Part shown: one piece after another, positions 2,003 to 13,922 of the stretch
How positions within the stretch are numbered: position 1 is the first letter of the stretch
How the letters are laid out: each line of letters opens with the position of its first letter
Assembly (NCBI GenBank): GCA_036260075.1
Contig: DATAAM010000223.1
Span: 1,489-25,488, forward strand
Direction of reading: 5' to 3'
Origin: Acidimicrobiales bacterium
GTDB taxonomy: Bacteria > Actinomycetota > Acidimicrobiia > Acidimicrobiales > JAHWLA01
DNA: 24,000 bases
Position numbers and translations under genes: made by a program
The notes under the pieces: model-generated
The model's database searches: none
What the model was told of the DNA's origin: nothing
Seen by the model: only the letters and a program-made list of their open reading frames with translations

Positions 2003-2986
2003 TCAGCGGAAGACGAGGGGCATGGGCAGGGTGTTGTCCTCCAAGCGGGCCTCGCCCTCGACGGGCCCGATCGTGACCGACAGGGTGCTGGCCGCTCCCG
2101 CCACCGGCCGCAGCCCGCCGAGCACCACGGTGGCCCGTTGGCCGGGTGCGAGATCCACGAAGTCGCGGGCACTGTCGCTCACCCCGTCGGCGGTGAGCGT
2201 GGCCACCACCGGCACCCGCTTCTCGGCTTCGTTGCCGACGTTGGCCACCACGATCTGCAACCGCAGCGACCGCACGGCGGGCAGCACGGAGGTGGCTCCC
2301 TCGCTGCCCACGGCCGCCGGGTCGGTGGTGACGAGGGCCACGGCGAGGTCGTGCACCGGAGCCAGCGACGCGCTCGCCCGCAGGGAGTGCACGAACGCGG
2401 CCAGCTCCCCGCCCGTCCAGCCCAGGCCCCCCGGCACCCACTCGGAGGGCGGCATCGCTCCCGCGGGCTTGCCGTCGACGCGGGGGATCGAGTCGAGGAA
2501 CACCACGTACGTGCCGTCGCCGGTGGCGAGGTCGCGCCCGGCGCGCACGAGCGCGTCGACCGCCGGTTCCGGTGGATCGGTGCCAAGGGCGCGCGTGAGC
2601 GCCTCACGCACCTGCTCCGCCGCCCGCGCCCGGATGGCCATGGTGGCCACGAGGAGGTTGTGCGAGGTCTCCAACGACTCCGGCGGGTCGGCCTCGCGCA
2701 CGAGGCGCAGCACCGAGCGGGCCTCGGCGGCAACCCGCTGCAGCCGCCGCCCCACGGCGGCGCGGCCCAGGCGGGCGGCCTCGTCGCGCACCCGCACGAG
2801 GTCGGCCCCCTGCTCGGTGGAGCGTTCGACGGCGGGCCGCACGCGGTCGAGGTAGGCGAGCTGGGCCAGGCGGACGGAGGGGCCGTCGGAGCCGCCGGAA
2901 GCGGCGTTGACCGCCAGGACGAGGAGCGTCAGGAGCGCGCCGAGCAGCAGCCAGCGGGGTCGCCGACGGCGAGGGGCGCGAGCCAT
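2003..2986 (-). CDS. Hypothetical secreted or membrane-anchored protein
   Basis: N-terminus MARAPRRRRPRWLLLGALLTLLVLAVNAA looks like a signal or anchor sequence. High GC3 coding frame. Starts 23 nt downstream of the histidine kinase stop on the same strand. No family recognised. Confidence 0.6.
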   Translation of the reverse strand: MARAPRRRRPRWLLLGALLTLLVLAVNAASGGSDGPSVRLAQLAYLDRVRPAVERSTEQGADLVRVRDEAARLGRAAVGRRLQRVAAEARSVLRLVREADPPESLETSHNLLVATMAIRARAAEQVREALTRALGTDPPEPAVDALVRAGRDLATGDGTYVVFLDSIPRVDGKPAGAMPPSEWVPGGLGWTGGELAAFVHSLRASASLAPVHDLAVALVTTDPAAVGSEGATSVLPAVRSLRLQIVVANVGNEAEKRVPVVATLTADGVSDSARDFVDLAPGQRATVVLGGLRPVAGAASTLSVTIGPVEGEARLEDNTLPMPLVFR

Positions 2987-3008
2987 CGGCGCCCGACGCT
3001 AGCGAACG

Positions 3009-4676
3009 TCACCGCCGCCGACGCCGGGGCCCGTAGCCATCGCCCGCCGCCGGCAGGCTCATCGCGAACGCCGCCCCGCCTCCCGGGTTGTCCGCGACCC
3101 ACAGGTCGCCGCCCTGCTCGCGCATGAGCCGCGAGGCCACGTACAGCCCGAGTCCCGAGCCCTCGGTGCCCGCCGACGTGGATCCCCGACGGGCGCGCTC
3201 GAAGACGGTCCGCCGTTCGGCGACGGGCACGCCCGGGCCTTTGTCGGCCACCGTCACGACCACCCAGTCGTCGCGGACCTCCCCCCGCACCTCGACGGGG
3301 GTGCCGGGCGCGTAGCGGGCTGCGTTGTCGAGGAGGTTGCGCAGCACCTGCACCGTCTCGGTGGGCCGGCCGACGGCCACGAGGCGGTCGTCGACGTCGA
3401 GCGTGACATCGTGGCCGCTTGAGCGTTCGAGGAGCACGACCGGCTCGATCACCTCGCACACCGGGAACGGCCGCGGCTCCTCCCGCTCCCGCGCGGCCAC
3501 CAGCTCCTGCAGCCGGCTGACCTCGGCTCCGAGCGCGTGCGTCAGCGCGTCGACCGTGCCCGCGTCGAGCTCGTCGTGGCTCCGACCGAGCAGGTCGGCC
3601 ACGCCGCCTATGGCGAACAGAGCGGAGCGCACGTCGTGCTGTCGCTCTTCGAGCGCTTGGCGCTCCGCCTCGCGCTGTGCCTCGATGCTGCGCACGCGGG
3701 CCTGCGAGCGCCGGAGCGCGGTGGCCTGGCGAGCGTGCTGCTCGTGCAGGTCGCGGTTGACGCCCATGAGGGCGAACAGCACGCCTTCGAAGCGGAGGAT
3801 GCGACTGGCGGCCAGCCACAGCGACCCCGCCGGGTAGGTGACGGCCAGGGCCATCCGGGCTTCGCCGAGGCCGAGCAGCATGAGCGCCAGCCACGCGTAG
3901 AGCGGGCGGTCGCGTGCGTCGGCGCACACCCAGAAGCGGACGGCGAGGAGCAGCACCACCCCGGCCACGAGCGCGTGTGCCACCGCCTGCCCCGCCGACG
4001 GCACCGTGCCCTCGCGCCGTCCGGCCAGGATCTCGGCGGTGGCGGGTGAGAGCACGAGCACCGTCGTGAGAACGGCCAACCCGAAGAGGGCCATCACCCC
4101 GGCGCGCGCCGGGGGGACCGTGCGCAGCCGGTCGCGCAGGCGTCCCGGAAGCGGGAAGACGGGCAGGGCCAGGACGAGCAGGCCGACCACGAAGCCGAGC
4201 GGCGGGACGAGCTCAACGAGTGTGTCGTCGCGCGCCCCCACGGGCAGGCGGGGGAGGACGAGCTCGTCGAAGCCCACGAACACGGCCCCGAGGATCACGA
4301 GGCCCACCCCGACGGCGATGTCGCGCCGTTCGCCCAGGAGCCGCCAGCGCAGCAGCACCAGCGCACCGACGACGACCGCGATCACCGTGGTCGAGGTGTC
4401 GAGGATGTCGTTCACGGAGGCCATGGCCTCGGTCGCCCCGTAGCCGCCCGCGTCGAGGGCTGCGAACACTCCCCAGGTCAGCCCGGTTATGGCCAGCGCC
4501 AAGAGCAGCGGCCCCGTGAACGGCCGGCGATCCGAGCCGCGCGGCCCGTCGGCTGCCTGGGCGCCGCCACCGCGCGCCGGGCGCGCCCACCGAGACCCCC
4601 CTTCCTCCGCTGCCATGCGGGCCCGCCACGGTCGTCCGAGCGGGACGCTTCCGCCCGCTGCTGAACCCATGTGCAC
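3009..4676 (-). CDS. Sensor histidine kinase with a multi-TM N-terminal domain. No response regulator is adjacent.
   Basis: H-box-like ERQHDVRSALFAIGG. ATPase boxes LRNLLDNAARYA, DKGPGV, GSGLGLYV. Several hydrophobic helices in the N-terminal half. The start is uncertain (4676 or the internal Met near 4616). Confidence 0.85.
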   Translation of the reverse strand: MHMGSAAGGSVPLGRPWRARMAAEEGGSRWARPARGGGAQAADGPRGSDRRPFTGPLLLALAITGLTWGVFAALDAGGYGATEAMASVNDILDTSTTVIAVVVGALVLLRWRLLGERRDIAVGVGLVILGAVFVGFDELVLPRLPVGARDDTLVELVPPLGFVVGLLVLALPVFPLPGRLRDRLRTVPPARAGVMALFGLAVLTTVLVLSPATAEILAGRREGTVPSAGQAVAHALVAGVVLLLAVRFWVCADARDRPLYAWLALMLLGLGEARMALAVTYPAGSLWLAASRILRFEGVLFALMGVNRDLHEQHARQATALRRSQARVRSIEAQREAERQALEERQHDVRSALFAIGGVADLLGRSHDELDAGTVDALTHALGAEVSRLQELVAAREREEPRPFPVCEVIEPVVLLERSSGHDVTLDVDDRLVAVGRPTETVQVLRNLLDNAARYAPGTPVEVRGEVRDDWVVVTVADKGPGVPVAERRTVFERARRGSTSAGTEGSGLGLYVASRLMREQGGDLWVADNPGGGAAFAMSLPAAGDGYGPRRRRR

Positions 4677-4720: not shown

Positions 4721-5332
4721 ATGAGCGCCTTCGAGTTGAGGACCCGGTGCTACGGTCGCCGCTCGATGACCGTCGACGAGGCCCGAGAACGCCTGGTTTC
4801 GGTCCTGTCGCGAGGGATGAGCACGGCGGTCGGCGAGCCGTTCACGCTCAGCTCCGGAGCCCGCAGTTGGGTCGTGTTCGACTGCGCCGACGCCATCTGC
4901 GACGACGACACCCTCGGCTTCGTCGTCTCCTACCTGCTCGACCACGTCGACGTGGACTGCGACGCGGTGGGCGGGCCCGCCCTCGGTGCCGGGCCCCTCG
5001 TCTACGGCGCGGGCGCGGTGGCGGGACGGCGTTGCTTCCTGGTGCGAGAGGCGCAGAAGGGGCACGGGGTCGGAGGCTGGTTCAAAGGGCACTTCCGACC
5101 GGGCGACCGGGTGCTGGTGGTGGAGGACGTGGTGACCACCGGCGACTCGCTGCTCAAGGCCATGCGCGTGGTGCGCGACCAGGGCGGGGTCGTGGTCGGT
5201 GCGGCCACGCTGATCGACCGGGGCGATATCACCGCCGCCAAGGTCGCCGAGGAGTTCGGCGTGCCCTACGTGCCGATGACGACGTACCGCGACTACGGCG
5301 TGGACCCCGTGGAAGCGGTGCCGTCGGCCTGA
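4721..5332 (+). CDS. Orotate phosphoribosyltransferase-like type I PRTase (PyrE family), chromosomal
   Basis: FTLSSG block, flexible-loop-like REAQKGHGVGGWFKG, PRPP loop VLVVEDVVTTGDS, LIDRG. Possible alternative start at ATG 4766 (MTVDEARERL). GC content matches the flanking core. Confidence 0.65.
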   Translation: MSAFELRTRCYGRRSMTVDEARERLVSVLSRGMSTAVGEPFTLSSGARSWVVFDCADAICDDDTLGFVVSYLLDHVDVDCDAVGGPALGAGPLVYGAGAVAGRRCFLVREAQKGHGVGGWFKGHFRPGDRVLVVEDVVTTGDSLLKAMRVVRDQGGVVVGAATLIDRGDITAAKVAEEFGVPYVPMTTYRDYGVDPVEAVPSA

Positions 5333-5338
5333 GCCGAG

Positions 5339-5343
5339 GCGGT
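5339..5343. repeat. Left copy of the 5-bp target-site duplication GCGGT
   Basis: gcggt directly abuts IR-L. An identical gcggt directly abuts IR-R at 12641-12645. Confidence 0.7.
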
Positions 5344-5359
5344 GGGCTACCGACAGAAC
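5344..5359. repeat. Left terminal inverted repeat (IR-L)
   Basis: gggctaccgacagaac. The reverse complement of 12625-12640 is gggctaccgacacaac. 15/16 identical, with the first 12 perfect. Confidence 0.75.
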
Positions 5360-5365
5360 TGTCCT

Positions 5366-5387
5366 GACGTGGGGTTACCCCAGCGTC
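5366..5387 (-). terminator. Hairpin downstream of the PRTase cassette
   Basis: gacgtgggg-tta-ccccagcgtc: a 9-bp stem with one bulge, located between the stop at 5428 and IR-L. No U-tract. Confidence 0.3.
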
Positions 5388-5427
5388 TTGCGGATCGGTT
5401 CCCCCCTCTGCTGGGTCGCGTTCCCAA

Positions 5428-6282
5428 CTACCCGCCGGGAACGGCTGCCTGGCGAGCCTTGGACTCAAGAGCTGCGAAGTCAGCATCACCGAGTTTGAGT
5501 ACCGCGTTCAGGTTCAAACGGTGCTCATCGAGCTTCGTTCGTGCAGACCCTTCGCTTCGCTCAACGAAGACGAACGCTTCACGAACGATGAAGCCTGCCT
5601 CCCGCGCTCGACTCGCGGTCTCCACTAGAAGCTCTCCATCAGTTCCGACGTCGTCCAGCAAGAGTCCTCGGCCGTGGGTAACGGCCGACTCGACGTATTG
5701 GCCGTCGAGGGGCGAATCACGAATAACCACCGAAGGCAGCTTCAAGATCTGGGCAACGGTCAGTCCGAGGATGGGGTTACCGGATTTCGGCAAGATAAGA
5801 GCGTGGTAATTTTTGACGATAATGTTCTCATTAATACTTTCAGCCAGGATCTCGGCTAGTACCTTAAGATGTGCTTCTGTCAGTACCGCTTCTCTGAGAT
5901 CTAGGGAGTAGCTAGCTTTTACAGCTCCACTTTTGCCCAACGTTTGAGGAGTGTCAGACTTCTTTAGATGAAGAAACATTACCCATTCAATGGGGCTCAC
6001 TTCGTTTGGTGTGGGGAAACCTTCCTTTGCAACCTGTTCTGGCGCGACATCTACGAAGTGCGATTTCTTCTCCGCCGGTGATTCCTCGGCTGCTTCGACC
6101 GCAGGTGGAGACACATCGCCGGTCCTGCGTCCCTGCAGGACCCCGTATAGAAATGCCAGAGCCCCCAACAACAACGAACCGCCCGCTAGCAACGGTTGAT
6201 CCTTGAGCATCACTGCGCCCAGGATCCCGCCGAGCGCGACGGGGAACGGGCCTCGCACCTTCTGCAACCATTGCCAGTCCAT
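5428..6282 (-). CDS. 2TM membrane-anchored protein with a divergent PRTase-fold C-terminal domain
   Basis: ATG 6282 is preceded by GAGGAA about 6 nt upstream; the track ORF begins at TTG 6348. Two hydrophobic helices: FPVALGGILGAVML and LLAGGSLLLGALAFLYGVL. PRTase core: ALILPKSGNPILGLTVAQILKLPSVVIR ... GLLLDDVGTDGELL ... FVFVERSEG. Confidence 0.7.
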   Translation of the reverse strand: MDWQWLQKVRGPFPVALGGILGAVMLKDQPLLAGGSLLLGALAFLYGVLQGRRTGDVSPPAVEAAEESPAEKKSHFVDVAPEQVAKEGFPTPNEVSPIEWVMFLHLKKSDTPQTLGKSGAVKASYSLDLREAVLTEAHLKVLAEILAESINENIIVKNYHALILPKSGNPILGLTVAQILKLPSVVIRDSPLDGQYVESAVTHGRGLLLDDVGTDGELLVETASRAREAGFIVREAFVFVERSEGSARTKLDEHRLNLNAVLKLGDADFAALESKARQAAVPGG

Positions 6283-6374
6283 GGGGGTTCCTCGTTCTGC
6301 GCGACCTGCGGCGGTACGGAGGAAGTCTAGACGGCCGAGTGCTAGCAAAGGTGACCAGTGGGGGGGCGGATATG

Positions 6375-6752
6375 CTAAATCTGATTCTCAGGTCTCGAAA
6401 GGACCTCGTAAATTTCTTCTCGCAGAAGGCGAGCCAGTCCAGCGCCCTCTTGGGCCGTGTTTGCCTCAAGCACCGCTTGCAGATGGCGCCTGAAAACTTC
6501 ATTCAGACTTGTAATTGCACCTTGTGGCAACGCCCCATGGCTGTCCCAGACGTCGCTGATGACGGCAAGCGCACGTGCAATCCCACTGTACCGAGCATCG
6601 CCAGAGTTGTCAGCTGCGTCCCAGCAGTAATTCTCCAGCTCCTGAACGGCCGGAGCAGACAGCAGGCCGTCAGTTATCAGTCGTTCAAGCGATGACGCGT
6701 CCATCCGGTACCGGTTCGATGCCCAAATCATCGTAGGTGATAAGTGGCTCAT
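6375..6752 (-). CDS. Hypothetical 125-aa protein, the middle gene of the PRTase cassette
   Basis: ORF in the low-GC segment, co-directional with and overlapping the 3' end of the upstream OPRT-like gene. Candidate starts are 6752 (GAGGGG upstream), 6731 and 6704. No family recognised. Confidence 0.5.
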   Translation of the reverse strand: MSHLSPTMIWASNRYRMDASSLERLITDGLLSAPAVQELENYCWDAADNSGDARYSGIARALAVISDVWDSHGALPQGAITSLNEVFRRHLQAVLEANTAQEGAGLARLLREEIYEVLSRPENQI

Positions 6753-7347
6753 AGACGCGAACCCCTCGTTCGCGCAGACGTTGACGGGTCGTTTCTCCGC
6801 GGTCGACCAGCGTGACTGCCATGACTACGTCGACTTGGAACGGTTCAAGAGCATCAAGCGCGTCGAGAATCGAGCGACCAGTCGTAGCAACGTCATCAAG
6901 GAGCAGTACTGGAAGACCGGGCGTGAGCGTCGCGCCCACGATGCGCTGACGCTTTCCGTGTAGCTTCTCGTCCTTCAGCACGGAGAACCAGAGCTTCTGA
7001 GCTGTAAAGGCAACAGCGTGCGCCAACGGATCCGCTCCGAGGGTCATGCCTCCAGCTGCGTCGAACTCCACGCCAGCCTGCTGGGTGAGCTCAAGGATCG
7101 CCTCGCCAACTCGCTGAAGGCAAGTGCCGTGAGCGAGAGCGCGTTTGGCATCGACGTAGTCGTGACTGAGATAGCCGGACGATAGTTCGAACGGCTCTGC
7201 TCGTCGCTCGTACCCCCACTTCGCCACCATGGCGATGATCGAATCTCGCAACTCGGACACGCGACTCAACTCCCGAGGCCCGCTCGGGCCACGGCGATCA
7301 GTGTAGGAGTTCTCCGGTTCGGTGTGGACACCGCTGAATCCTTGCAC
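6685..7347 (-). CDS. Orotate phosphoribosyltransferase-like type I PRTase (PyrE family), transposon-borne
   Basis: FELSSGYLSHDYVD, loop LKDEKLHGKRQRIVG, PRPP loop VLLLDDVATTGRS, LVDRG, C-terminus TYDDLGIEPV. The likely true start is GTG 7260 (GGGAG 9 nt upstream); the track start is GTG 7347. Confidence 0.75.
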   Translation of the reverse strand: MQGFSGVHTEPENSYTDRRGPSGPRELSRVSELRDSIIAMVAKWGYERRAEPFELSSGYLSHDYVDAKRALAHGTCLQRVGEAILELTQQAGVEFDAAGGMTLGADPLAHAVAFTAQKLWFSVLKDEKLHGKRQRIVGATLTPGLPVLLLDDVATTGRSILDALDALEPFQVDVVMAVTLVDRGETTRQRLRERGVRVYEPLITYDDLGIEPVPDGRVIA

Positions 7348-7402
7348 AGTCCGCGCCTTCCTTCTCGGGCAGGGCCCGCCAGTTCGGACTCTCAGGTCCT
7401 TG

Positions 7403-7447
7403 ACTCTGAACTCCAGACTTCAGAATCCGAAGTTCGAAGTTCAGAGT
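7403..7447. promoter_or_regulatory. Operator-like repeat cluster between the PRTase cassette and the wHTH gene
   Basis: 9-bp inverted repeat actctgaac (7403-7411) / gttcagagt (7439-7447). TTCAGA half-sites at 7419-7424 and 7440-7445, 21 bp apart. Tandem gaagttc x2 at 7429-7442. Confidence 0.5.
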
Positions 7448-7474
7448 ACGCTGGGCCCTGAGGAGGGAGGGTGG

Positions 7475-7789
7475 ATGGTCGGAGCGAAGAGCCGGGACCA
7501 AGTCCAAGCTCTTTCGAAGAGCGCTTTGGGCCGCGACCATCGATTGACCCTTGCGCGTGCGATCCTCGCCAGGGGCGACGACCTTTTCGATCTTGCCACG
7601 CTCGAAGAAGCAACGGGGGTGCCAGACGCGACCGTCTTCAGGGAGGTGGCCGAACTTCACGATCTTGGAGTTCTGAACAGGGTTGAGGATCGGAATCGAG
7701 TCTTCTACCACAGAGTGGACAGTCCCTTCTGGGCCTGGTGCCAAGAACTCCTCGACCGTGTTACTGGAGCCGACTCGTCGGTTCGCTGA
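7475..7789 (+). CDS. Small winged-helix (ArsR/MarR-like) transcriptional regulator
   Basis: ATG 7475 with AGGAGGGAGG at 7461-7470. HTH-like segment LATLEEATGVPDATVFREVAELHDLGVLNRVEDRNRVFYH. Divergent from the PRTase cassette. Confidence 0.65.
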   Translation: MVGAKSRDQVQALSKSALGRDHRLTLARAILARGDDLFDLATLEEATGVPDATVFREVAELHDLGVLNRVEDRNRVFYHRVDSPFWAWCQELLDRVTGADSSVR

Positions 7790-7822
7790 GTACATTGCAC
7801 TTGGCGATGCCTGTCCCGCCAC

Positions 7823-8026
7823 TCAACCGGCGTTTCGCTCTGCCCAGCGCACGATCTCCGAACGCAGCCAGAGCCTCGTACGACCGCCCCCACGCTCGAC
7901 GACCGGGCGGGGCATGTCGGCGTAGCGCTTTTGGTACGTGGAGACGCTGTTGCGGTGCGACAGACCGAGGAGCTCAGCGACCTCTTGCGCGTCGATCAGG
8001 TCCTCCGTGTTCACCTTCGGCGCCAC
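7823..8026 (-). CDS. Excisionase/AlpA/MerR-type small HTH DNA-binding protein
   Basis: LIDAQEVAELLGLSHRNSVSTYQKR ... RLWLRSEIVRWAE matches the Xis-family HTH pattern. GTG start at 8026, 6 nt after a TAGACT -10-like hexamer on the minus strand, which suggests a leaderless transcript. Confidence 0.65.
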   Translation of the reverse strand: MAPKVNTEDLIDAQEVAELLGLSHRNSVSTYQKRYADMPRPVVERGGGRTRLWLRSEIVRWAERNAG

Positions 8027-8044
8027 GCGGCCAGTCTACGAGCG

Positions 8045-8073
8045 TTGACAAACCTCGGGTGGATCCCTAGTCT
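8045..8073 (+). promoter_or_regulatory. Sigma-70/HrdB-like promoter for the 8154.. operon
   Basis: TTGACA (8045-8050), 17-nt spacer, TAGTCT (8068-8073). Confidence 0.45.
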
Positions 8074-8085
8074 ACGAACGTAGAC
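8070..8085. promoter_or_regulatory. Perfect 16-bp palindrome overlapping the -10 hexamer; probable operator
   Basis: gtctacgaacgtagac. The 9-mer agtctacga also occurs at 8033-8041 and 8069-8077. Confidence 0.45.
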
Positions 8086-8153
8086 ATACCAGGTGGCCGG
8101 GGCGCTGCGCGAACAGCCCCCGGCCTGGCCGATTCCTGCAAGGAGGAACCGAC

Positions 8154-8423
8154 GTGGCCGAGGCTACGACAGCGAAGGCACCGTCCCACGCGACCCGCAA
8201 GACGATCGTGCATGCGACCGACAGGGGACTGGAGCTCGAACAGGAAGTGGAGGCGTTCGCCGTCCACGCCAGTGAGGCGTTGGAGGCGTTCACCGAGGAC
8301 GTAGGACCGCTCAACCTCTCCGACAAGCGGTACGAGCTGGTCGCGGCTGCGTCCGGCCTGGCGGGCCTGTTCAACCTCGTGGAACGCATGAGGGAGACGC
8401 TGGACGGGGTGACGGCGGCATGA
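8154..8423 (+). CDS. Hypothetical 89-aa protein
   Basis: GTG 8154 with AGGAGG at 8141-8146. ATGA overlap with the next gene. Confidence 0.55.
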   Translation: MAEATTAKAPSHATRKTIVHATDRGLELEQEVEAFAVHASEALEAFTEDVGPLNLSDKRYELVAAASGLAGLFNLVERMRETLDGVTAA

Positions 8424-8647
8424 CGAGGTATCCCGGCATCCACGTCTTCACCGCTCGCATGCCCGTCGGCGAGTACGAGGCACTGAAGGCATTCGCCTAC
8501 TTCACCCGACGTCCGATCAACGACGTCGTCCTGACGGCTGTTCGGTCCTACCTGCGGCAGCAGGTGGCCGAGGACCACCTGAACGAAATGGTGGAGCAAC
8601 TGCGAGCGACGCTCCACGAGACGTTCGAAGCCCTCGGAGAGCGGTGA
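8420..8647 (+). CDS. Ribbon-helix-helix (CopG/Arc-like) protein
   Basis: ARMPVGEYEALKAFAYFTRRPINDVVLTAVRSYL fits the RHH strand-helix-helix pattern. About 40% identical over 40 aa (hand alignment) to the chromosomal ORF 20191..20421. Confidence 0.6.
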   Translation: MTRYPGIHVFTARMPVGEYEALKAFAYFTRRPINDVVLTAVRSYLRQQVAEDHLNEMVEQLRATLHETFEALGER

Positions 8648-8904
8648 TGGCACGCGCCGCATCGCCAAGGTTGCCGATCGACCCCCTGCTCCGGCTCTGC
8701 GACGGCAACGTCGGTCTTCTTGCAGAGGCGCTCCGGCGACCTCGTCGGGTCATCACGCGGTGGAAGACCCTCGGGTTGCCGCTCGTCCAAGCGGACAGAT
8801 GCGCCGTGGCGGTCGGGCACCACCCGGTCGATCTCTGGCCCGACTGGTACGAAGCGACCGAGGCTTGGGCCACACACCGGAGTCGACGGTGTCGGGCCGC
8901 GTAG
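8644..8904 (+). CDS. Small putative DNA-binding protein
   Basis: GTGATG overlap with the RHH stop. The segment VITRWKTLGLPLVQADRCAVAVGHHPVDLWPDW resembles small HTH proteins of actinobacterial mobile elements (from memory). Confidence 0.45.
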   Translation: MMARAASPRLPIDPLLRLCDGNVGLLAEALRRPRRVITRWKTLGLPLVQADRCAVAVGHHPVDLWPDWYEATEAWATHRSRRCRAA

Positions 8905-9015
8905 TTCGGGGCGAGATCCCGAGGGCGTTCGCTCGACGAGCAGCGCGATCTGCTGGTCGGCCTCCGCGCCCTGCGGAACTACGGGCCTGAAGCCGCCGAG
9001 GCGGTCGAGGCTGTC

Positions 9016-9204
9016 ATGGAGCTGGGTCTGATCCGGCGCCTGCTGCTGTCCTGGGAGTTGGCCGTCGAGCTGGCCGAGGCCGAGGGCAGGGATGGGCGGC
9101 AGGCCATGGTCGACCTGCTCGGTGCCGATGATGCCGAACTCATCGAGGCAGCGCTGTTCGACCCGGTTCCCCGGCTCGTCTGTCTCGACGGCGGGGCCGG
9201 ATGA
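9016..9204 (+). CDS. Hypothetical small acidic protein. Same frame as 8644..8904, separated only by a TAG at 8902-8904.
   Basis: The frame is open from 8905 and coding-like (SLDEQRDLLVGLRALRNYGPEAAEAV...), but the first canonical start is ATG 9016. Confidence 0.35.
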   Translation: MELGLIRRLLLSWELAVELAEAEGRDGRQAMVDLLGADDAELIEAALFDPVPRLVCLDGGAG

Positions 9205-9209
9205 CCCGC

Positions 9210-9338
9210 TCAGGCGACTCTGTGCTCGGCGAGGAACCGCTTGGCGGCGACGCGCAGGATGCCGACGATCGTGCGGTCCTCCGCCTCGGCGACAGCCCGA
9301 AGCTGGTCGTGCAGGTCGGCAGGCAGCCGAATAGTCAT
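9210..9338 (-). CDS. 42-aa ribbon-helix-helix protein
   Basis: MTIRLPADLHDQLRAVAEAEDRTIVGILRVAAKRFLAEHRVA is the C-terminal part of track ORF 9210..10433. It shows the RHH pattern and shares RLPAD with the other two RHH ORFs. The RBS is weak. Confidence 0.45.
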   Translation of the reverse strand: MTIRLPADLHDQLRAVAEAEDRTIVGILRVAAKRFLAEHRVA

Positions 9339-9818
9339 GGCTCGATCGGCTTGGTTCTTCTTCACCAATCGCGACGGTATCGCCGAGGCCCTACGGCAAC
9401 GCGGATCCGCCACATGGCTCGTACCTGCCCGGCACCATGTGGTTGCCCGCGGTACCGCAGTCGTCTGCGAGGGTCGGAAAGCAGTAGGGGGCCGCCCGCT
9501 CCGGAGGTATCCGGAGAAAATGGCCAGGACCGGGATGGCGACGACGTCCCCGGGAGCTCGGGAGCCCCGCTCCTGCGCGACGGAACGTGTGAGTTGGTTT
9601 CGTCGCGCAGGAGGATCAGGTTGGCTTCGCAGATCGAGCAGTTGGTTCTCGAGGTGGAGAACCCGAGCCGATGCCCGCATCCATCCGCTGTCACATGCCG
9701 GGACCGGCATGGCGTCCGACTGTGGAGTCGTGTCCTTGGAAGCGCGACAGGCGCGTTTGCTCGCGATCGCAGTTCTCCGCGTTGGGATGCGGGAGAGCCG
9801 TGGCGGGACCGAGACACT

Positions 9819-10723
9819 GTGACACGCCGGATCAGCCGGTTCGTGCCGAGCAGTGTGCCGCCCGACGTCTGGGAGCGAATCGCTCCGTCCGTCCGACGAG
9901 CGGCCGAACGAGCCGGCTCTACGCCCTACAGCGCCACCGCTCTGGCTTCGGTCACCGCCCAGCTCCTCCACTGGTGCGACCGGGAGGGGCTCCCGCTGCG
10001 CGATGAGGTCGTGCTGCACCCCGACACGGTCGACCGCTTCATTGCGGCTGGGTGCGGTCATCTCCGGCACGGGACTCGCCTCAACTATCAGAGCCAGCTT
10101 CGCCGAGTGGGCGAGCTTCTCGTCGGTCCTCCGCTCTATCCGACCCGCAGATATTCGACCGGCTCCTCCGACCCGATCGCTCCGTACACGGAGGAGGAGG
10201 TCGCCGCCCTCCTCGGGTGGGCACGCGGGCTGAGCACGGCCCGCATGCGGCAGAACTCGCTCGTCCTCCTCTCCTTCGGACTCGGTGTGGGCCTGACCAG
10301 CCGGGAACTGAATGCGCTCGTCGGCACCGACGTCGCCTCGGACGATGACGGAGTCCTGGTGCACGTCGTCACAGGGCGTCGCCGCCGTGTCGTTCGCGTG
10401 CTTCGCAGGTGGGAAGAGCATGTCCACACGCACGCCGAACGAGTCGGCGGGAAGGGGTATTCCTGCCGGGCCGTGATCGTGTCGGCCGCAAGGACATCAG
10501 CCGCTTCGTGGAGGGTTGTCCTCGGTCGGATGCCCCGAAGCTGAGCGTCCAGCGTCTTCGAGTCACTTGGATCGTCGGCCATCTGTTGGCGGGTACGCCG
10601 TTGCCGGTTCTCGAAGCCGCGGCCGGGGCCACGGCGTCGCAACTGGCCGCCTACGCGGCGTACATCCCCGAACCCGACGAGGCCACGGCGAACCACTGGT
10701 TGCGGGAGGCGACCTCGCCGTGA
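9819..10723 (+). pseudogene. Tyrosine-recombinase (phage-integrase fold)-like gene, apparently frameshifted
   Basis: Frame 0 gives YTEEEVAALLGWA...GLGVGLTSRELNALVGTDV...VLVHVVTGRRRRVV. The homology-like sequence then continues in frame 2: VFLPGRDRVGRKDISRFVEG...LSVQRLRVTWIVGHLLAGTPLPVLEAAAG...YAAYI. The switch lies at the G-run 10454-10457. The proposed start at GTG 9819 is uncertain. Confidence 0.5.
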
Positions 10724-12480
10724 CCTTGCCCACCCTCGCGCCCATGGCAATGCCCTCGTACGAGGACTTGCCTCGGCGCGGCGGGTGGACATTCGACGAC
10801 GACACCGTCCGTTGGGCGATGCGAGTGATCGACCGTTCTGGCTTGGTCGAGCAGTTGGACACATGGGCGGCTGACGCACGCCGGGGACCGGGAGGCCGAC
10901 CTGAGACGTTTCCACGGCGGGCCTTGCTCGTTGCCATAGCACTGGCCGCTCGGGAAGGACTGGCGATGCAGGCATTGGTGTTCTGCAACGTCCTCTTCCG
11001 TCACATCGGGCCGACCATGCGCGCCGAGTTGCGGGTTCCCAATCCGCCGTCGGAATCCGATGGGCATGGCTGGAAGGCCGTGTATCGCAACGTCAGGACG
11101 CGCCTTCATGGGATCCTCGAACTGGTCGACCCTTCGCCGTACCCCAAGAACCGCCGACTGGACGCAGCGGCGTTCGCAGAGCGCACGAAGGATCTTTCGG
11201 CCGACGAGATCGCGGAGCGCATCGAGAAGCTCACGTGGCTGGCGAACCGGATCATCGAGGCAAGCCTGCGAGAGTGCCCGGCGGAGATCCTCGACAACTG
11301 GGACGGCTCGATCGGACTGGATGCCACCCCGATCCGACTGTACGCCCGTCCTGAGAGGAGAGCCCGCGGTCGGCGAGGCAAGCAGCTGGTGGAGGTTCAT
11401 TCGTCCGATCCCGATGGGGCCTGGTACATGCGCGAGCACGATCACCGGGATCCCGATACGCAGCCCGACACGGGAGCGAAGAAGGGGAAGCAGGTCGCCA
11501 AGGCGTTCTGGGCGCAGGAGGCCACGATCGCCACGGCCAGTTCGAGCGATCCGCGAGCCAAGAGGAGCTTCCCCAAGCTGGCTGTCGGCATGGCTTCGCT
11601 TCACAAGCCGGGCCACCATCCCGACGAACACGGCATCCGTGCCTTGGCGAGCATCAAACAGCGCGGCCACCCCAGCGGCCTCCTTGCCGCCGATCGGGCC
11701 TACACCAACTCGAAGCCCGAGAACTTCCAACTGCCGGCTCGGGCCATGGGATACCGCCTGGTCCTCGACTACCGCGAGGATCAGCTCGGCATCCAGGGCT
11801 CGCATGCCGGAGCGCTCCAGATCGAAGGCGGATGGTCCTGTCCGTGCTTGCCGGAAGCGCTGGTGGATGCAACGGCCGACTTCCGTGCTGGTGGCATCAC
11901 CGAAGACGTGTGGCGTCAACGGCTCAGGGCACGGACGGCGTACCGGCTCCGGGAGAAGGAGCGACCCGACGCTGAAGGTCACGTTCGCCTCCAGTGTCCT
12001 GCCGCGGGACCGGCACCTACCTGCCGCTGCCCGTTGAAGCCCGCGTCCGTCTCCGATGCCACGGCCGGCAAGCCCCTCGTCCTCGTCACCGACGACGTGG
12101 CCCAGAACCCGCCTGCCATCTGTCGGCAGCAATCGGTGACCTTCCCCCCGGACGCCGGTGCCAAGTACCTCCAAGCGCTGGAATACGAGTCGCCCGACTG
12201 GCGCCGGGCCTACCCGACCCTGAGGAACTCCATCGAGGGCACGAGCGGCACGGCCAAGGACGGGGCCTACGAAGCTCTCGGCATCGCCGACAGGCGACGG
12301 ATCCGTGGCCAAGCGGCCCAAACCCTGTTCGTCGCCTTCCTGTTGTTCGGGACGAACCTGCGCATGATCGACAGCTTTCGGGCCCAGGCAAAGGCGGAGG
12401 AGGACGGCGTCATGCGCTTGCCCCGAAAGCGGCGACGGAAGACCCGGCCTCTGTCCGACCACCTGCCGACGACGATCTGA
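10720..12480 (+). CDS. DDE transposase, IS4-superfamily-like (IS4/IS1634/IS1380-type)
   Basis: GTG 10720 overlaps the upstream stop as GTGA. N-terminal GRPETFPRRALLVAIALA (InsH-N-like). Candidate catalytic residues are the D in IGLDATPI (aa ~201), the D in LLAADRAYT (aa ~325) and the E in YPTLRNSIEGTSGTAKD (aa ~506, a Y-R-E-K-like signature), followed by FLLFGTNLRMI. Confidence 0.75.
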   Translation: MTLPTLAPMAMPSYEDLPRRGGWTFDDDTVRWAMRVIDRSGLVEQLDTWAADARRGPGGRPETFPRRALLVAIALAAREGLAMQALVFCNVLFRHIGPTMRAELRVPNPPSESDGHGWKAVYRNVRTRLHGILELVDPSPYPKNRRLDAAAFAERTKDLSADEIAERIEKLTWLANRIIEASLRECPAEILDNWDGSIGLDATPIRLYARPERRARGRRGKQLVEVHSSDPDGAWYMREHDHRDPDTQPDTGAKKGKQVAKAFWAQEATIATASSSDPRAKRSFPKLAVGMASLHKPGHHPDEHGIRALASIKQRGHPSGLLAADRAYTNSKPENFQLPARAMGYRLVLDYREDQLGIQGSHAGALQIEGGWSCPCLPEALVDATADFRAGGITEDVWRQRLRARTAYRLREKERPDAEGHVRLQCPAAGPAPTCRCPLKPASVSDATAGKPLVLVTDDVAQNPPAICRQQSVTFPPDAGAKYLQALEYESPDWRRAYPTLRNSIEGTSGTAKDGAYEALGIADRRRIRGQAAQTLFVAFLLFGTNLRMIDSFRAQAKAEEDGVMRLPRKRRRKTRPLSDHLPTTI

Positions 12481-12624
12481 GCCTCACGAGCCGAGGTACC
12501 GGCCTTCAGAGGCGTCCTGTCGAGCAGGTCAGAACGGCCTTGAAGGTGCCTCTGGGCATCCTCCGACCAGATCAGGGGCCTGCTGGCCACCGATTCTCCG
12601 GGTTTTGTCGGCGGGAGCCGCCCG

Positions 12625-12640
12625 GTTGTGTCGGTAGCCC
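12625..12640. repeat. Right terminal inverted repeat (IR-R)
   Basis: gttgtgtcggtagccc is the reverse complement of IR-L with one mismatch. Confidence 0.75.
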
Positions 12641-12644
12641 GCGG

Positions 12645-12645
<1 letters not shown>
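12641..12645. repeat. Right copy of the 5-bp target-site duplication GCGGT; overlaps the tRNA 3' terminus
   Basis: gcggt is identical to 5339-5343. On the minus strand it reads ACCGC, i.e. the discriminator A plus CC of the tRNA and 2 further nt. Confidence 0.7.
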
Positions 12646-12728
<83 letters not shown>

Positions 12729-12817: not shown

Positions 12818-13474
12818 ATGGGACTCCAGCAGTTCGAGCGGCGCCTCGAACGCCTCGTCGAGGGCGTCTTCGCCAAGGCCTTTCGCAGCGGGCTCCAGCC
12901 CGTGGAGGTGGGTCGCCGTCTGACTCGGGAGATGGACCTGCACCGCACGGTCGGCGTGCGCGGCGTGCTCGTGCCCAACTGGTTCGAGATCGCGCTCGCC
13001 CCCGCCGACCACGAGCGGTTCGCCCCCTTCGAGGAGAGCCTGCTGCGCGACCTGGCCGACATGGCCCGCCAGCACGCCCGCGACGAGGGCTACTCGTTCG
13101 TCGGGCCCGTCGAGATCGCGCTCGAGCCGGATCCCTCGCTCACGCCCGGCATGTTCCTCGTCTCCTCCGAGGTGCGGGAGGGGGCGGGCGGCGGCGAGCC
13201 CGGGTCCCTCGTGCTGCCCGACGGCACCCGCGTGGAGGTCACCGGCGACCCCGTCACCATCGGCCGCCTGCCCGACTGCGACATCGTGCTCGACGACCGC
13301 AACGTGAGCCGTCGCCACGCCGAGGTGCGCCGCACGCCCAACGGCTTCACCGTGGTCGACCTCGACTCCACCAACGGCACGCGGGTCAACGGAGCGGGCG
13401 TCAAGGAGCGCCGCCTGGCCGACGGCGACAGCATCACGGTCGGGACCACCACCATTCGGTTCGAAGCCTCCTAG
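12818..13474 (+). CDS. fhaA: FhaA-like protein (DUF3662 N-terminal domain plus C-terminal FHA domain)
   Basis: MGLQQFERRLERLVEGVFAKAF N-terminus. FHA block VTIGRLPDCDIVLDDRNVSRRHAEV...STNGTRVNG. Synteny with fhaB-pstP-rodA-pbpA-pknB. Confidence 0.85.
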   Translation: MGLQQFERRLERLVEGVFAKAFRSGLQPVEVGRRLTREMDLHRTVGVRGVLVPNWFEIALAPADHERFAPFEESLLRDLADMARQHARDEGYSFVGPVEIALEPDPSLTPGMFLVSSEVREGAGGGEPGSLVLPDGTRVEVTGDPVTIGRLPDCDIVLDDRNVSRRHAEVRRTPNGFTVVDLDSTNGTRVNGAGVKERRLADGDSITVGTTTIRFEAS

Positions 13475-13484
13475 AGGGAGCGCG

Positions 13485-13922
13485 ATGCCCGAGTCGCTGC
13501 TCACGATCCTGAAGTTCCTCTTCCTGGCCCTGGTGTGGCTGTTCTTCGCCCGCGTGCTGCGGGCGGTGTGGGCCGAGCTCTCGCCCGCCGCCGAGCCCGC
13601 CCCCGCCGTCGGCGGCGGCCGTGGCGGAGTGGCCCGCCTGAAGGTGGTCGAGCCCGCCGACAAGCGGGGCCTCGCCTTCGACGTGGGCGACGAGCTCACG
13701 GTGGGCCGGGCGGGTGGCTGCCAGATCGCGCTGGAGGACGACAAGACCGTCTCCCAGCTCCACGCCCGCGTCTTCAGGGGGGCGGAGGGGCGCGTCTACG
13801 TCGAGGATCTCGGGTCGACCAACGGCACCTACCTCAACGCCAAGAAGCTCACCGGTCCCGCCGCCCTCCACCGAGGCGACCGCCTCCAGGTCGGCCGCAC
13901 GGTGCTGGAGGCCACCAAGTGA
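13485..13922 (+). CDS. fhaB: FhaB/FipA-like membrane-anchored FHA-domain protein
   Basis: N-terminal TM helix LLTILKFLFLALVWLFFA. FHA block LTVGRAGGCQIALEDDKTVSQLHARV...STNGTYLN. RBS agagggag. Confidence 0.85.
   Translation: MPESLLTILKFLFLALVWLFFARVLRAVWAELSPAAEPAPAVGGGRGGVARLKVVEPADKRGLAFDVGDELTVGRAGGCQIALEDDKTVSQLHARVFRGAEGRVYVEDLGSTNGTYLNAKKLTGPAALHRGDRLQVGRTVLEATK

Follow-up and report, generated by a model that had tools for sequence, protein, structure and literature searches.

The stretch of DNA considered here is a window of 24,000 nucleotides on contig DATAAM010000223.1 of an Acidimicrobiales bacterium, and the gene under study lies on its minus strand at 5428..6282. The gene encodes a protein of 284 amino acids in which two predicted transmembrane (TM) helices (hence "2TM protein" below) precede a degenerate phosphoribosyltransferase (PRTase) domain, an assignment that draws on the open reading frame (ORF) with its ribosome-binding site, on an AlphaFold model, and on the orotate phosphoribosyltransferase (OPRT) fold of that model. 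Translation is taken to start at the ATG at 6282, with GAGGA 6 nt upstream, and the stop codon occupies 5428-5430. A longer version starting from a TTG at 6348 is possible and was dropped, since the ribosome-binding site and the N-termini of homologues favor the ATG; two other ORFs, 5342-5809 (+) and 7298-7822 (-), were dropped as shadows of conserved genes on the opposite strand. The product (P0001) has the same sequence as NCBI HEX2040722.1, which an Acidimicrobiales metagenome-assembled genome lists as a "hypothetical protein". Homologues of the same architecture, at 31-44% identity, occur in at least seven independent loci, and the gene is thus real rather than a chance reading frame. Judged from sequence, it is one of four genes in a conserved cassette and supplies the membrane component; the other three encode an intact OPRT-like enzyme, a small helical protein and, divergently, a winged helix-turn-helix (wHTH) regulator.

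The first gene of the cassette operon, at 6685..7347 on the minus strand with its start somewhere in 7260-7347, encodes the OPRT-like PRTase. This partner matches Pfam Pribosyltran (E 1.7e-7), NCBIfam TIGR00336 (E 9e-26, at 90.6 bits under the cutoff of 106.8) and OPRTs in the PDB (E 3e-19), and it keeps the TTG loop, the K-x-x-K-x-H-G motif (as K-DE-K-L-H-G) and DRGE. Its stop codon (6685) is overlapped by 20 nt by the second gene, whose ATG is at 6704 and which runs from 6375 to 6704 on the minus strand. This small gene, recognized by tblastn in the cassette loci, encodes an all-helical protein of about 109 amino acids that AlphaFold models as a five-helix bundle at a mean predicted local distance difference test (pLDDT) of 95.9. 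The motif G-D-A-R-Y is invariant, as are two arginines of a C-terminal helix, LARLLREE. A profile search gathered at least 92 clusters of such proteins, all unnamed and without Pfam domains, and Foldseek against PDB and BFVD returned nothing below E 0.7. Divergent from the operon, at 7475..7789 on the plus strand, lies a MarR-like wHTH gene (Pfam MarR_2 at E 0.004, below the gathering score), probably the regulator of the cassette. Between the two, in the divergent promoter region at 7403..7447, an imperfect inverted repeat (22 + 22 nt with 1 nt between the arms, 82% complementary and with internal palindromes) is a candidate operator.

The genes for the OPRT-like enzyme, the small protein and the 2TM protein were found together in seven independent loci, namely the window, L001, L012, L013, L016, L017 and L101. 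When neighbors were examined around the closest relatives of the target (P0002, P0003, P0005, P0006, P0007 and P0009, at 31-44% identity), the same gene set was present every time. The association is preserved through rearrangement, because in L001 the order is permuted, with the small gene after rather than before the 2TM gene, and the genes are still together. Across these loci the partner is 54-60% identical to that encoded at 6685-7347, and the small gene (about 105 codons, and often uncalled) is found by tblastn in every one at 31-50% identity. The wHTH gene is again divergent from the operon in L001 (53%) and L017 (47%), and weakly so in L016. Source organisms include Acidimicrobiales, Streptosporangiaceae and Ca. 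Limnocylindria (Chloroflexota), and so two phyla, Actinomycetota and Chloroflexota; three further metagenome contigs stop just past the small gene. A preliminary description of this DNA, made from the letters of the window, had listed the gene at 6685-7347 as a paralogue of the target. Its OPRT-like character and its TTG loop stand, but it is actually an obligate operon partner, which that description overlooked, and both the third conserved gene (6375-6704) and the divergent regulator, which were absent from it, belong to the unit.

The partner also has relatives outside the cassette. Scanned against metagenomes, the partner alignment picked out 80 loci, most of them representing a chromosomal OPRT-like paralogue of about 49% identity without the cassette, so the partner alone is no marker of the system. 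This widespread paralogue carries the signature SHDY[IV]DGK … WFSVRKE, is distinct from actinobacterial PyrE, and was seen in L036 (3893-4516) and about 60 other metagenome loci (L025-L100). Judging by sequence relationship, the cassette enzyme probably descends from it.

The N-terminal part of the 2TM protein consists of two hydrophobic helices, as the preliminary description had proposed. Helix 1 (amino acids 12-26, PFPVALGGILGAVML, encoded at 6205..6249 on the minus strand) and helix 2 (amino acids 31-49, LLAGGSLLLGALAFLYGVL, at 6136..6192 on the minus strand) were placed by hydropathy and coincide with model helices 12-25 and 30-54, which AlphaFold builds at pLDDT 87-95. Helix 2 is clearly hydrophobic (Kyte-Doolittle 2.06 over 19 residues). 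Helix 1, with two prolines and four glycines, is marginal (Kyte-Doolittle 1.88 over 15 residues, Hessa sum +6.9); the hairpin as such is conserved, and the first helices that homologues align with it are strongly hydrophobic. Basic residues precede helix 1 (K8/R10) and come after helix 2 (R52/R53), which by the positive-inside rule fits an N-in/C-in hairpin that would leave the PRTase domain in the cytoplasm. Next comes a disordered, net-acidic, proline-rich linker (amino acids 55-95, at 5998..6120 on the minus strand), recognized from composition and from block pLDDT values of 47-67, with residues 62-75 below 50. The linker had been described as acidic and about 60 residues long; its acidity is borne out (10 D/E against 5 K/R in residues 51-100), but its length is nearer 40, and both length and sequence vary among homologues.

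The rest of the protein (amino acids 96-284, at 5431..5997 on the minus strand) is an OPRT-derived type I PRTase-fold domain of what we call the S-D-G clade, assigned from pLDDT, Foldseek and profile comparison with the PDB. Sequence methods reach it weakly. The target matches nothing in Pfam (E <= 0.1), PHROGs or PADLOC; TIGR00336 (pyrE) gives E 3e-6 and 27.1 bits against a cutoff of 106.8, and phmmer against PDB sequences finds human OPRT 2wns at E 4e-5. A profile of 69 family members, however, reaches OPRTs in the PDB at E 2e-17. The AlphaFold2 model computed from that 69-member alignment has a mean pLDDT of 89.8, with residues 97-280 at 97 or above, and shows the five-stranded parallel sheet of the PRTase core. 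In a Foldseek search against the PDB, OPRTs come first and adenine phosphoribosyltransferases (APRTs) next within the top 50, the best match having E 4e-13; the human, M. tuberculosis and A. pernix OPRTs superpose with TM-scores to the target of 0.76-0.86. The model thereby confirms an OPRT-type PRTase fold for the C-terminal half, in agreement with the preliminary description. No close homologue turned out to be a characterized salvage enzyme, all of them being "hypothetical" or automatically named.

Which of the OPRT residues survive in this domain? The target was aligned with E. coli PyrE and with the two canonical PRTase paralogues of the window; the numbering of the PyrE sequence used agrees with the published positions K26, F34/F35, Y72/K73, K103, D124/D125 and R156. 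Residues 204-219 of the target read GRGLLLDDVGTDGELL, and within them DDVGTDGELL (amino acids 210-219, at 5626..5655 on the minus strand) keeps the acidic pair and alters the 5-phosphate loop, as judged from the sequence itself, the clade consensus and the PyrE alignment. The LLLDD of the phosphoribosyl pyrophosphate (PRPP) motif is thus present, but the loop that follows reads V-G-T-D-G-E-L against the canonical T-[TAS]-G-x-[TS], with Asp at the second Thr/Ala position and Leu at the final Ser/Thr/Ala position. The other two PRTase genes of the window have LLLDDVATTGRS (DDVATTGRS; 6685-7347, minus strand) and VVEDVVTTGDS (4721-5332, plus strand). These observations match what had been noted about all three loops at the outset, except that the altered loop, real as it is, turns out not to be peculiar to the target and is the signature of a whole clade.

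Measured against PyrE, the target keeps D124/D125 (as D210/D211), T128 (T214), G130 (G216) and R156 (R242), and changes A129 to D215, T131 to Glu and A132 to Leu. The kept arginine lies in VERSEG; this base-binding residue of the D-R-x-E motif is nearly invariant across the clade. The flexible catalytic loop (R99-G109 of PyrE) is three residues shorter and reads IRDSPL---DGQ, without K100, K103 or H105 or indeed any Lys or His. In OPRT this loop acts in trans across an obligate dimer and its lysines are needed for catalysis, while residues 128-132 hold the 5-phosphate of PRPP. With both of these loops altered and the acidic pair and the arginine kept, the pattern argues that contacts to ribose and base are retained and that pyrophosphate chemistry and 5-phosphate binding are lost.

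The clade to which the target belongs came into view through a full HMMER scan of 1.84 billion cluster representatives with a two-sequence profile, which returned 185 proteins at E <= 1e-3 and 72 at E <= 1e-10; a single-protein word-index homology search had found the target itself, one relative, and nothing else. By this sequence measure the clade comprises at least 150 cluster representatives and is unannotated. Its loop consensus is DD[VI][SA]S[DE]G[EA] followed by a hydrophobic residue, with D or E at the position of D215 in 84 of 150 representatives. Further invariant motifs (F-x-DLLSA, PKxGN, F-G-x-W-x-EG and DRxEGD) are specific to it, and proteins with a canonical TTG are confined to the weak end of the match list. 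That a new signature is conserved in this way argues for a functional site with altered specificity rather than for decay. Pfam PF00156, whose gathering threshold the target does not reach, matches 54 of 120 clade members at E <= 0.001. Searches of the literature for PRTases with 2TM, patatin, prokaryotic viperin (pVip) or PRTase-CE returned no description of the clade, and none of the Pfam, NCBIfam, PHROGs and PADLOC v2 models, nor the literature searched, covers either the clade or the cassette.

The domain is found in several kinds of fusion. One or two N-terminal hydrophobic segments are present in about half of the clade representatives, with the S-D-G domain C-terminal to them. In six members (P0060, P0069, P0075, P0097, P0099 and P0119) the domain is fused to a patatin that matches PADLOC models of phospholipase effectors of the cyclic-oligonucleotide-based antiphage signaling system (CBASS), at E 3e-17; in these proteins the S-D-G domain stands C-terminal to the patatin. 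Two loci with patatin fusions are L003 (4396-8328) and L019 (296-2401). One patatin fusion is flanked by a gene for a radical S-adenosylmethionine (SAM) protein and by a Vut_1 transporter of the vitamin or queuosine-precursor type, and another is preceded by an HD_3 / YfbR-like phosphohydrolase. Three proteins of about 626 amino acids (P0065, P0080 and P0087) join TM segments, the S-D-G domain and a radical-SAM domain that matches PADLOC pVip at E 2e-15. An unfused version occurs in L020 (1358-4080), where pVip (E 3e-30) and then an AIRS-family gene come after a gene for one TM segment plus the domain; the literature searched held no description of a PRTase-like partner of prokaryotic viperins. 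Two fusions to NUDIX and one to IMPase complete the set, and HD phosphohydrolases adjoin the 2TM members P0011 and P0016 as well as the patatin fusion P0075.

Members of the clade that stand alone are found in an operon with the order S-adenosylhomocysteine (SAH)-hydrolase-like (AdoHcyase_NAD), NUDIX, S-D-G domain, IMPase (L006 1103-3334, L009 5258-8292, L007 5229-8248 and L008 5253-8119), with fusion variants that combine NUDIX with the domain or the domain with IMPase. Genomes of Pseudomonadota, Cyanobium and Actinomycetota carry this operon, within stretches whose composition is atypical. It looks like an uncharacterized system for modifying nucleosides or nucleotides; in L007 two PRTase-like genes lie in tandem, next to a Ser/Thr kinase. 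When genomes were scanned with a narrower clade alignment, six loci came back, all of this stand-alone type. Considering that the neighbors of the clade are all nucleotide-processing enzymes, and of unrelated folds, their common denominator would be a nucleotide-like small molecule rather than a PRTase heterodimer.

The cassette itself lies in DNA that looks foreign to the chromosome around it. The GC content of the window is 0.70-0.76 except between 5.3 and 12.6 kb, where it is 0.59-0.68; the target sits at the left edge of this stretch, and the cassette has a GC content of 0.59-0.62 against 0.73-0.76 in the flanks. The stretch ends at a tRNA-Leu(CAG) gene (12643-12728, minus strand), and on composition the region 5340-12640 looks like an integrated island that ends at the tRNA. 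A search at the opposite end of the low-GC stretch for a direct repeat of the 3' end of tRNA-Leu found none, and the ends of the island are in that sense undefined. Near 8 kb the GC content rises in a step, from about 0.60 to about 0.67, so the island may be a mosaic of two insertions. Next to the cassette, at 7823-8026 on the minus strand, is a gene for an HTH_17, excisionase-like (Xis-like) protein of 67 amino acids (Pfam E 4.6e-4; PHROG "DNA binding protein", E 6e-13; PADLOC PDC-M06B, E 1.7e-6).

Comparable company surrounds the cassette elsewhere. Its neighbors are a type II methyltransferase and restriction endonuclease, that is a restriction-modification pair, with DUF2637 in L001, DUF2637 in L101, a TrwC relaxase and HTH_17 in L013, a tyrosine integrase in L016, and a 605-residue fusion of PRTase and diadenylate cyclase (DAC) in L012; in L099, which has the partner and small genes without the 2TM gene, they are AbiLi/AbiLii. 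No cassette was found in IMG/VR with the partner and small-protein alignments or in PLSDB by tblastn. Given the integrase, relaxase and excisionase genes nearby and the lack of matches in these two collections, the cassette is cargo of integrative or conjugative islands, and often sits beside defense genes. The L012 fusion (2726-4543, minus strand), directly adjoining the cassette copy, begins with a PRTase-like region (Pfam E 1e-4) and ends with a DAC domain of the DisA type (E 8e-7); two unannotated genes come after it, and it may be a separate nucleotide-signaling system.

Other genes of the window have less bearing on the cassette. The third OPRT-like gene (4721-5332, plus strand; TIGR00336 at 98 bits, just under the cutoff), 34% identical to the cassette partner, had also been called a paralogue. 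It is indeed OPRT-like and carries VTTGDS, but it has host composition, with GC content at third codon positions of 0.91, and lies outside the island. Because the other cassette loci have no such neighbor, its adjacency is probably coincidental. Within the island, two large plus-strand ORFs, 9201-10723 (447 amino acids) and 10516-12480 (654 amino acids), match nothing in Pfam or PHROGs. By eye, the first of these and an overlapping 104-residue ORF (10409-10723) contain motifs reminiscent of tyrosine recombinases, GLTSRELNALVGTDV and LRVTWIVGHLLAGTPLPVL, and together they could be a divergent or frameshifted integrase. The flanking host gene 3009-4676 (minus strand) encodes a multi-TM histidine kinase (HATPase_c, E 1e-24), and past the tRNA come conserved host genes for an FHA-domain pair, FhaA/FhaB, at 12818-13474 and 13485-13922 (both plus strand); the FhaA ORF as listed begins at 12644, inside the tRNA gene, and its true start is probably farther downstream.

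What, then, might such a protein do? The reading we tentatively favor, at somewhat less than an even chance, is that the 2TM protein serves a new conflict or defense module as its ligand-gated membrane component and is not a transferase. The binding residues of the PRTase domain are kept and the catalytic ones lost, the new loop is conserved, the domain takes the C-terminal position of a sensor, and its neighbors are nucleotide enzymes; we infer from this combination a domain that serves as a receptor for a small molecule, or as a regulatory domain. The preliminary description had suggested a different ligand, or a sensor in place of a transferase, and that suggestion, still conjectural, is strengthened by the clade-wide loop, by the loss of the Lys/His loop, and by the fusions to TM segments and CBASS-like patatins. 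In the mechanism we propose, the intact OPRT-like partner would make or consume a ribosyl compound from PRPP, and the degenerate domain would bind either that compound itself or something derived from it; the ligand would probably have no normal 5'-phosphate. Occupancy by the ligand would then control the Gly/Ala-rich helical hairpin at the N-terminus, for example through oligomerization and permeabilization of the membrane, in the manner of the 2TM effectors of CBASS, Pycsar and type II Thoeris. The small helical protein could act as sensor of the trigger, adaptor or inhibitor, and the wHTH protein would provide transcriptional control of the cassette.

Several points weigh against this reading. 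No protein of the cassette matches any PADLOC model, and the defense role rests on guilt by association in a handful of loci. Helix 1 of the target is of marginal hydrophobicity by the Kyte-Doolittle and Hessa measures given above. In L099 the 2TM gene is missing although the OPRT-like and small genes are there, so that the 2TM protein may be an accessory. The product expected of an OPRT-like enzyme is a nucleoside 5'-monophosphate, yet the putative receptor has lost the 5-phosphate loop, and a simple "product sensor" would therefore need a further processing step. Finally, the fusions to NUDIX, IMPase and pVip, together with the biosynthetic-looking operon, would equally suit catalysis on an unusual substrate.

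A bolder version of the same idea, which we regard as doubtful, holds that the S-D-G domain is an unrecognized receptor for a second messenger derived from a ribosyl compound or nucleotide, an analogue of SAVED, CARF or Macro domains, and that the cassette is a signaling immune system. The PRTase would make the messenger from PRPP and a base or other nucleophile, and the 2TM receptor would kill or arrest the cell; in sister systems the same domain would gate patatin phospholipases and couple to viperin-like enzymes. If true, this would add a new sensor fold to bacterial immune signaling, namely an enzyme-derived PRTase domain, and a new chemistry of signal production, phosphoribosyl transfer from PRPP as against nucleotide cyclization or NAD cleavage. 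The clade links three antiviral themes (2TM and patatin membrane effectors, viperin-like radical-SAM enzymes, and NUDIX/HD nucleotide hydrolases), and the identity of one ligand could inform several orphan systems. Even if the defense role is wrong, the analysis delimits an unannotated clade of at least 150 cluster representatives, a small helical family of at least 92 clusters without a known fold relative, and a compact, experimentally tractable cassette of four genes.

The strict pairing of an intact OPRT-like gene with the target subfamily invites a different explanation, in which the intact enzyme is itself a toxic effector that depletes PRPP or nucleotides. The 2TM protein would be its dead paralogue, holding the enzyme inactive at the membrane in a heterodimer until a trigger arrives, with the small protein as antitoxin or adaptor. 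The degenerate domain does lack the trans-acting loop, L099 with its OPRT-like and small genes resembles a toxin-antitoxin core, and PRTase effectors that deplete PRPP are documented (PMC12746101, PMC11961720). Yet the degenerate domain is no recent duplicate of the partner; the two share little in the alignment beyond the acidic pair and the arginine, and the domain falls in a clade of its own. Elsewhere in this clade the partners are HD, NUDIX or radical-SAM proteins, with which a PRTase heterodimer is impossible. The closest wider relatives of the partner, at about 49% identity, are ordinary chromosomal genes that show no sign of toxicity control, and the partner reaches PADLOC ShosT at just E 0.066. 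Taken together, we consider this explanation unlikely. Much the same holds for the proposal that the domain is still an enzyme, acting on a non-canonical substrate without a normal 5-phosphate. It would be a ribosyl- or base-exchange transferase or a nucleosidase that makes, with the partner, a modified and possibly antiviral nucleoside or nucleotide, the TM helices merely localizing it. The polar residues K166, N169, D210, D211, D215, R242 and E244 are invariant in the clade, as active-site residues would be. Rosetta-stone fusions to NUDIX, IMPase and viperin-like radical-SAM domains, the biosynthetic look of the SAH-hydrolase-like/NUDIX/domain/IMPase operon, and the TM-domain gene with pVip (E 3e-30) and an AIRS-family gene behind it all point the same way. 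Against these stand the loss of the Lys/His loop for pyrophosphate chemistry, whose residues OPRT needs for catalysis, the fusions to patatin or TM segments with no other catalytic domain, which are typical of effector-sensor proteins, and a target cassette with no transporter or tailoring-enzyme context around it. On balance such an activity seems rather improbable.

Two further explanations look to ordinary or mobile-element biology, and both strike us as far less probable. The presence of three PRTase-fold genes within 2.6 kb, one of host composition, and the automatic naming of the nearest homologue in one source as "orotate phosphoribosyltransferase" might suggest a membrane-tethered regulator or isozyme of host pyrimidine or nucleobase salvage. 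This is very hard to reconcile with the low GC content of the cassette against its flanks, with its movement between phyla on islands that carry integrase, relaxase or excisionase genes, with the lack of any adjoining host PRTase gene in the other loci, and with a PyrE score of 27 bits against a cutoff of 106.8. Carriage by integrative or conjugative elements could also hint at a function in DNA entry, such as entry exclusion or uptake, by analogy with ComFC-type PRTase-fold proteins at the membrane. We give this scarcely any credence, as the domain is OPRT-derived and not ComFC-like, its top fold and sequence matches all being OPRTs, and no helicase or DprA partner was seen in any locus examined.

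How does the ligand-gated membrane component that we favor compare with known systems? With OPRT (PyrE) itself, the domain shares the fold, the hydrophobic strand followed by the acidic pair, the R156-equivalent arginine and the glycine of the phosphate loop. It differs in having no Pfam match, a shortened loop without Lys or His, T-D-G-E-L in place of the phosphate loop, and the added two-helix hairpin and disordered linker. Membership in PyrE or in the Pfam PRTases was accordingly rejected, the protein failing on score, phosphate loop and catalytic loop despite its OPRT descent. PRTase-CE (PF24390), which reportedly comes from comparative-genomic work on nucleotide-centric conflict systems, is a PRTase-fold family tied to such systems, as the present clade may be. 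It is a separate family nonetheless, for the target has no match to it and only one of 120 clade members matches, weakly (E 1.4e-4).

PRTase-fold proteins have also been described in phage defense. ShosT of ShosTA is one (PMC11961720, PMC12961424), and the PRTase effector of Retron-Eco11, a type III-A3 retron, needs an intact PRPP motif, mutation of which abolishes defense (PMC12746101). The likeness lies in the use of a PRTase fold in defense of the abortive-infection type, and the apparently active PRTase of the cassette could likewise drain PRPP. The differences are considerable, since those effectors are soluble and pair with the DprA-like ShosA or with a reverse transcriptase (RT) and a non-coding RNA, whereas the target has a non-canonical loop, is predicted to be membrane-anchored, and has no ShosA or RT neighbor. 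No DprA or RT domain was present among the scanned cassette neighbors, which comprised the window and the called genes of six other loci, and the target matched neither PADLOC ShosT nor PRTase_III-A. With no model match, no ShosA or RT partner and a PRPP motif that is not intact, an assignment to ShosTA or to the retron effectors was rejected.

The closest parallels are the 2TM effectors of nucleotide-signaling defense, namely 2TM-SAVED of CBASS, the 2TM effector of Pycsar and the 2TM-Macro ThsA of type II Thoeris. The architecture of the target would fit these, with predicted N-terminal TM helices, the first of them marginal, and a C-terminal, putatively cytoplasmic domain of nucleotide-binding fold. 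Like these, it is encoded beside a nucleotide-metabolizing enzyme on mobile or defense islands, and where it has TM segments, some of its sister proteins have a CBASS-like patatin. Unlike these, its putative sensor has a PRTase fold and is not a SAVED, CARF, cNMP-binding or Macro domain, and its neighbor is an OPRT-like PRTase and not a CD-NTase, cyclase or TIR protein, with a small helical protein besides. Searches of the target, the partner and the small protein against the PADLOC models gave no match, apart from the partner with ShosT at E 0.066. Perhaps the simplest description is that the cassette is a candidate for a new conflict module of nucleotide enzyme plus membrane effector, described by no model or paper searched. 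Its 2TM protein is no member of the known effector families, as the cognate synthase is absent and no model matches, and by its architecture it would nevertheless work most like them.

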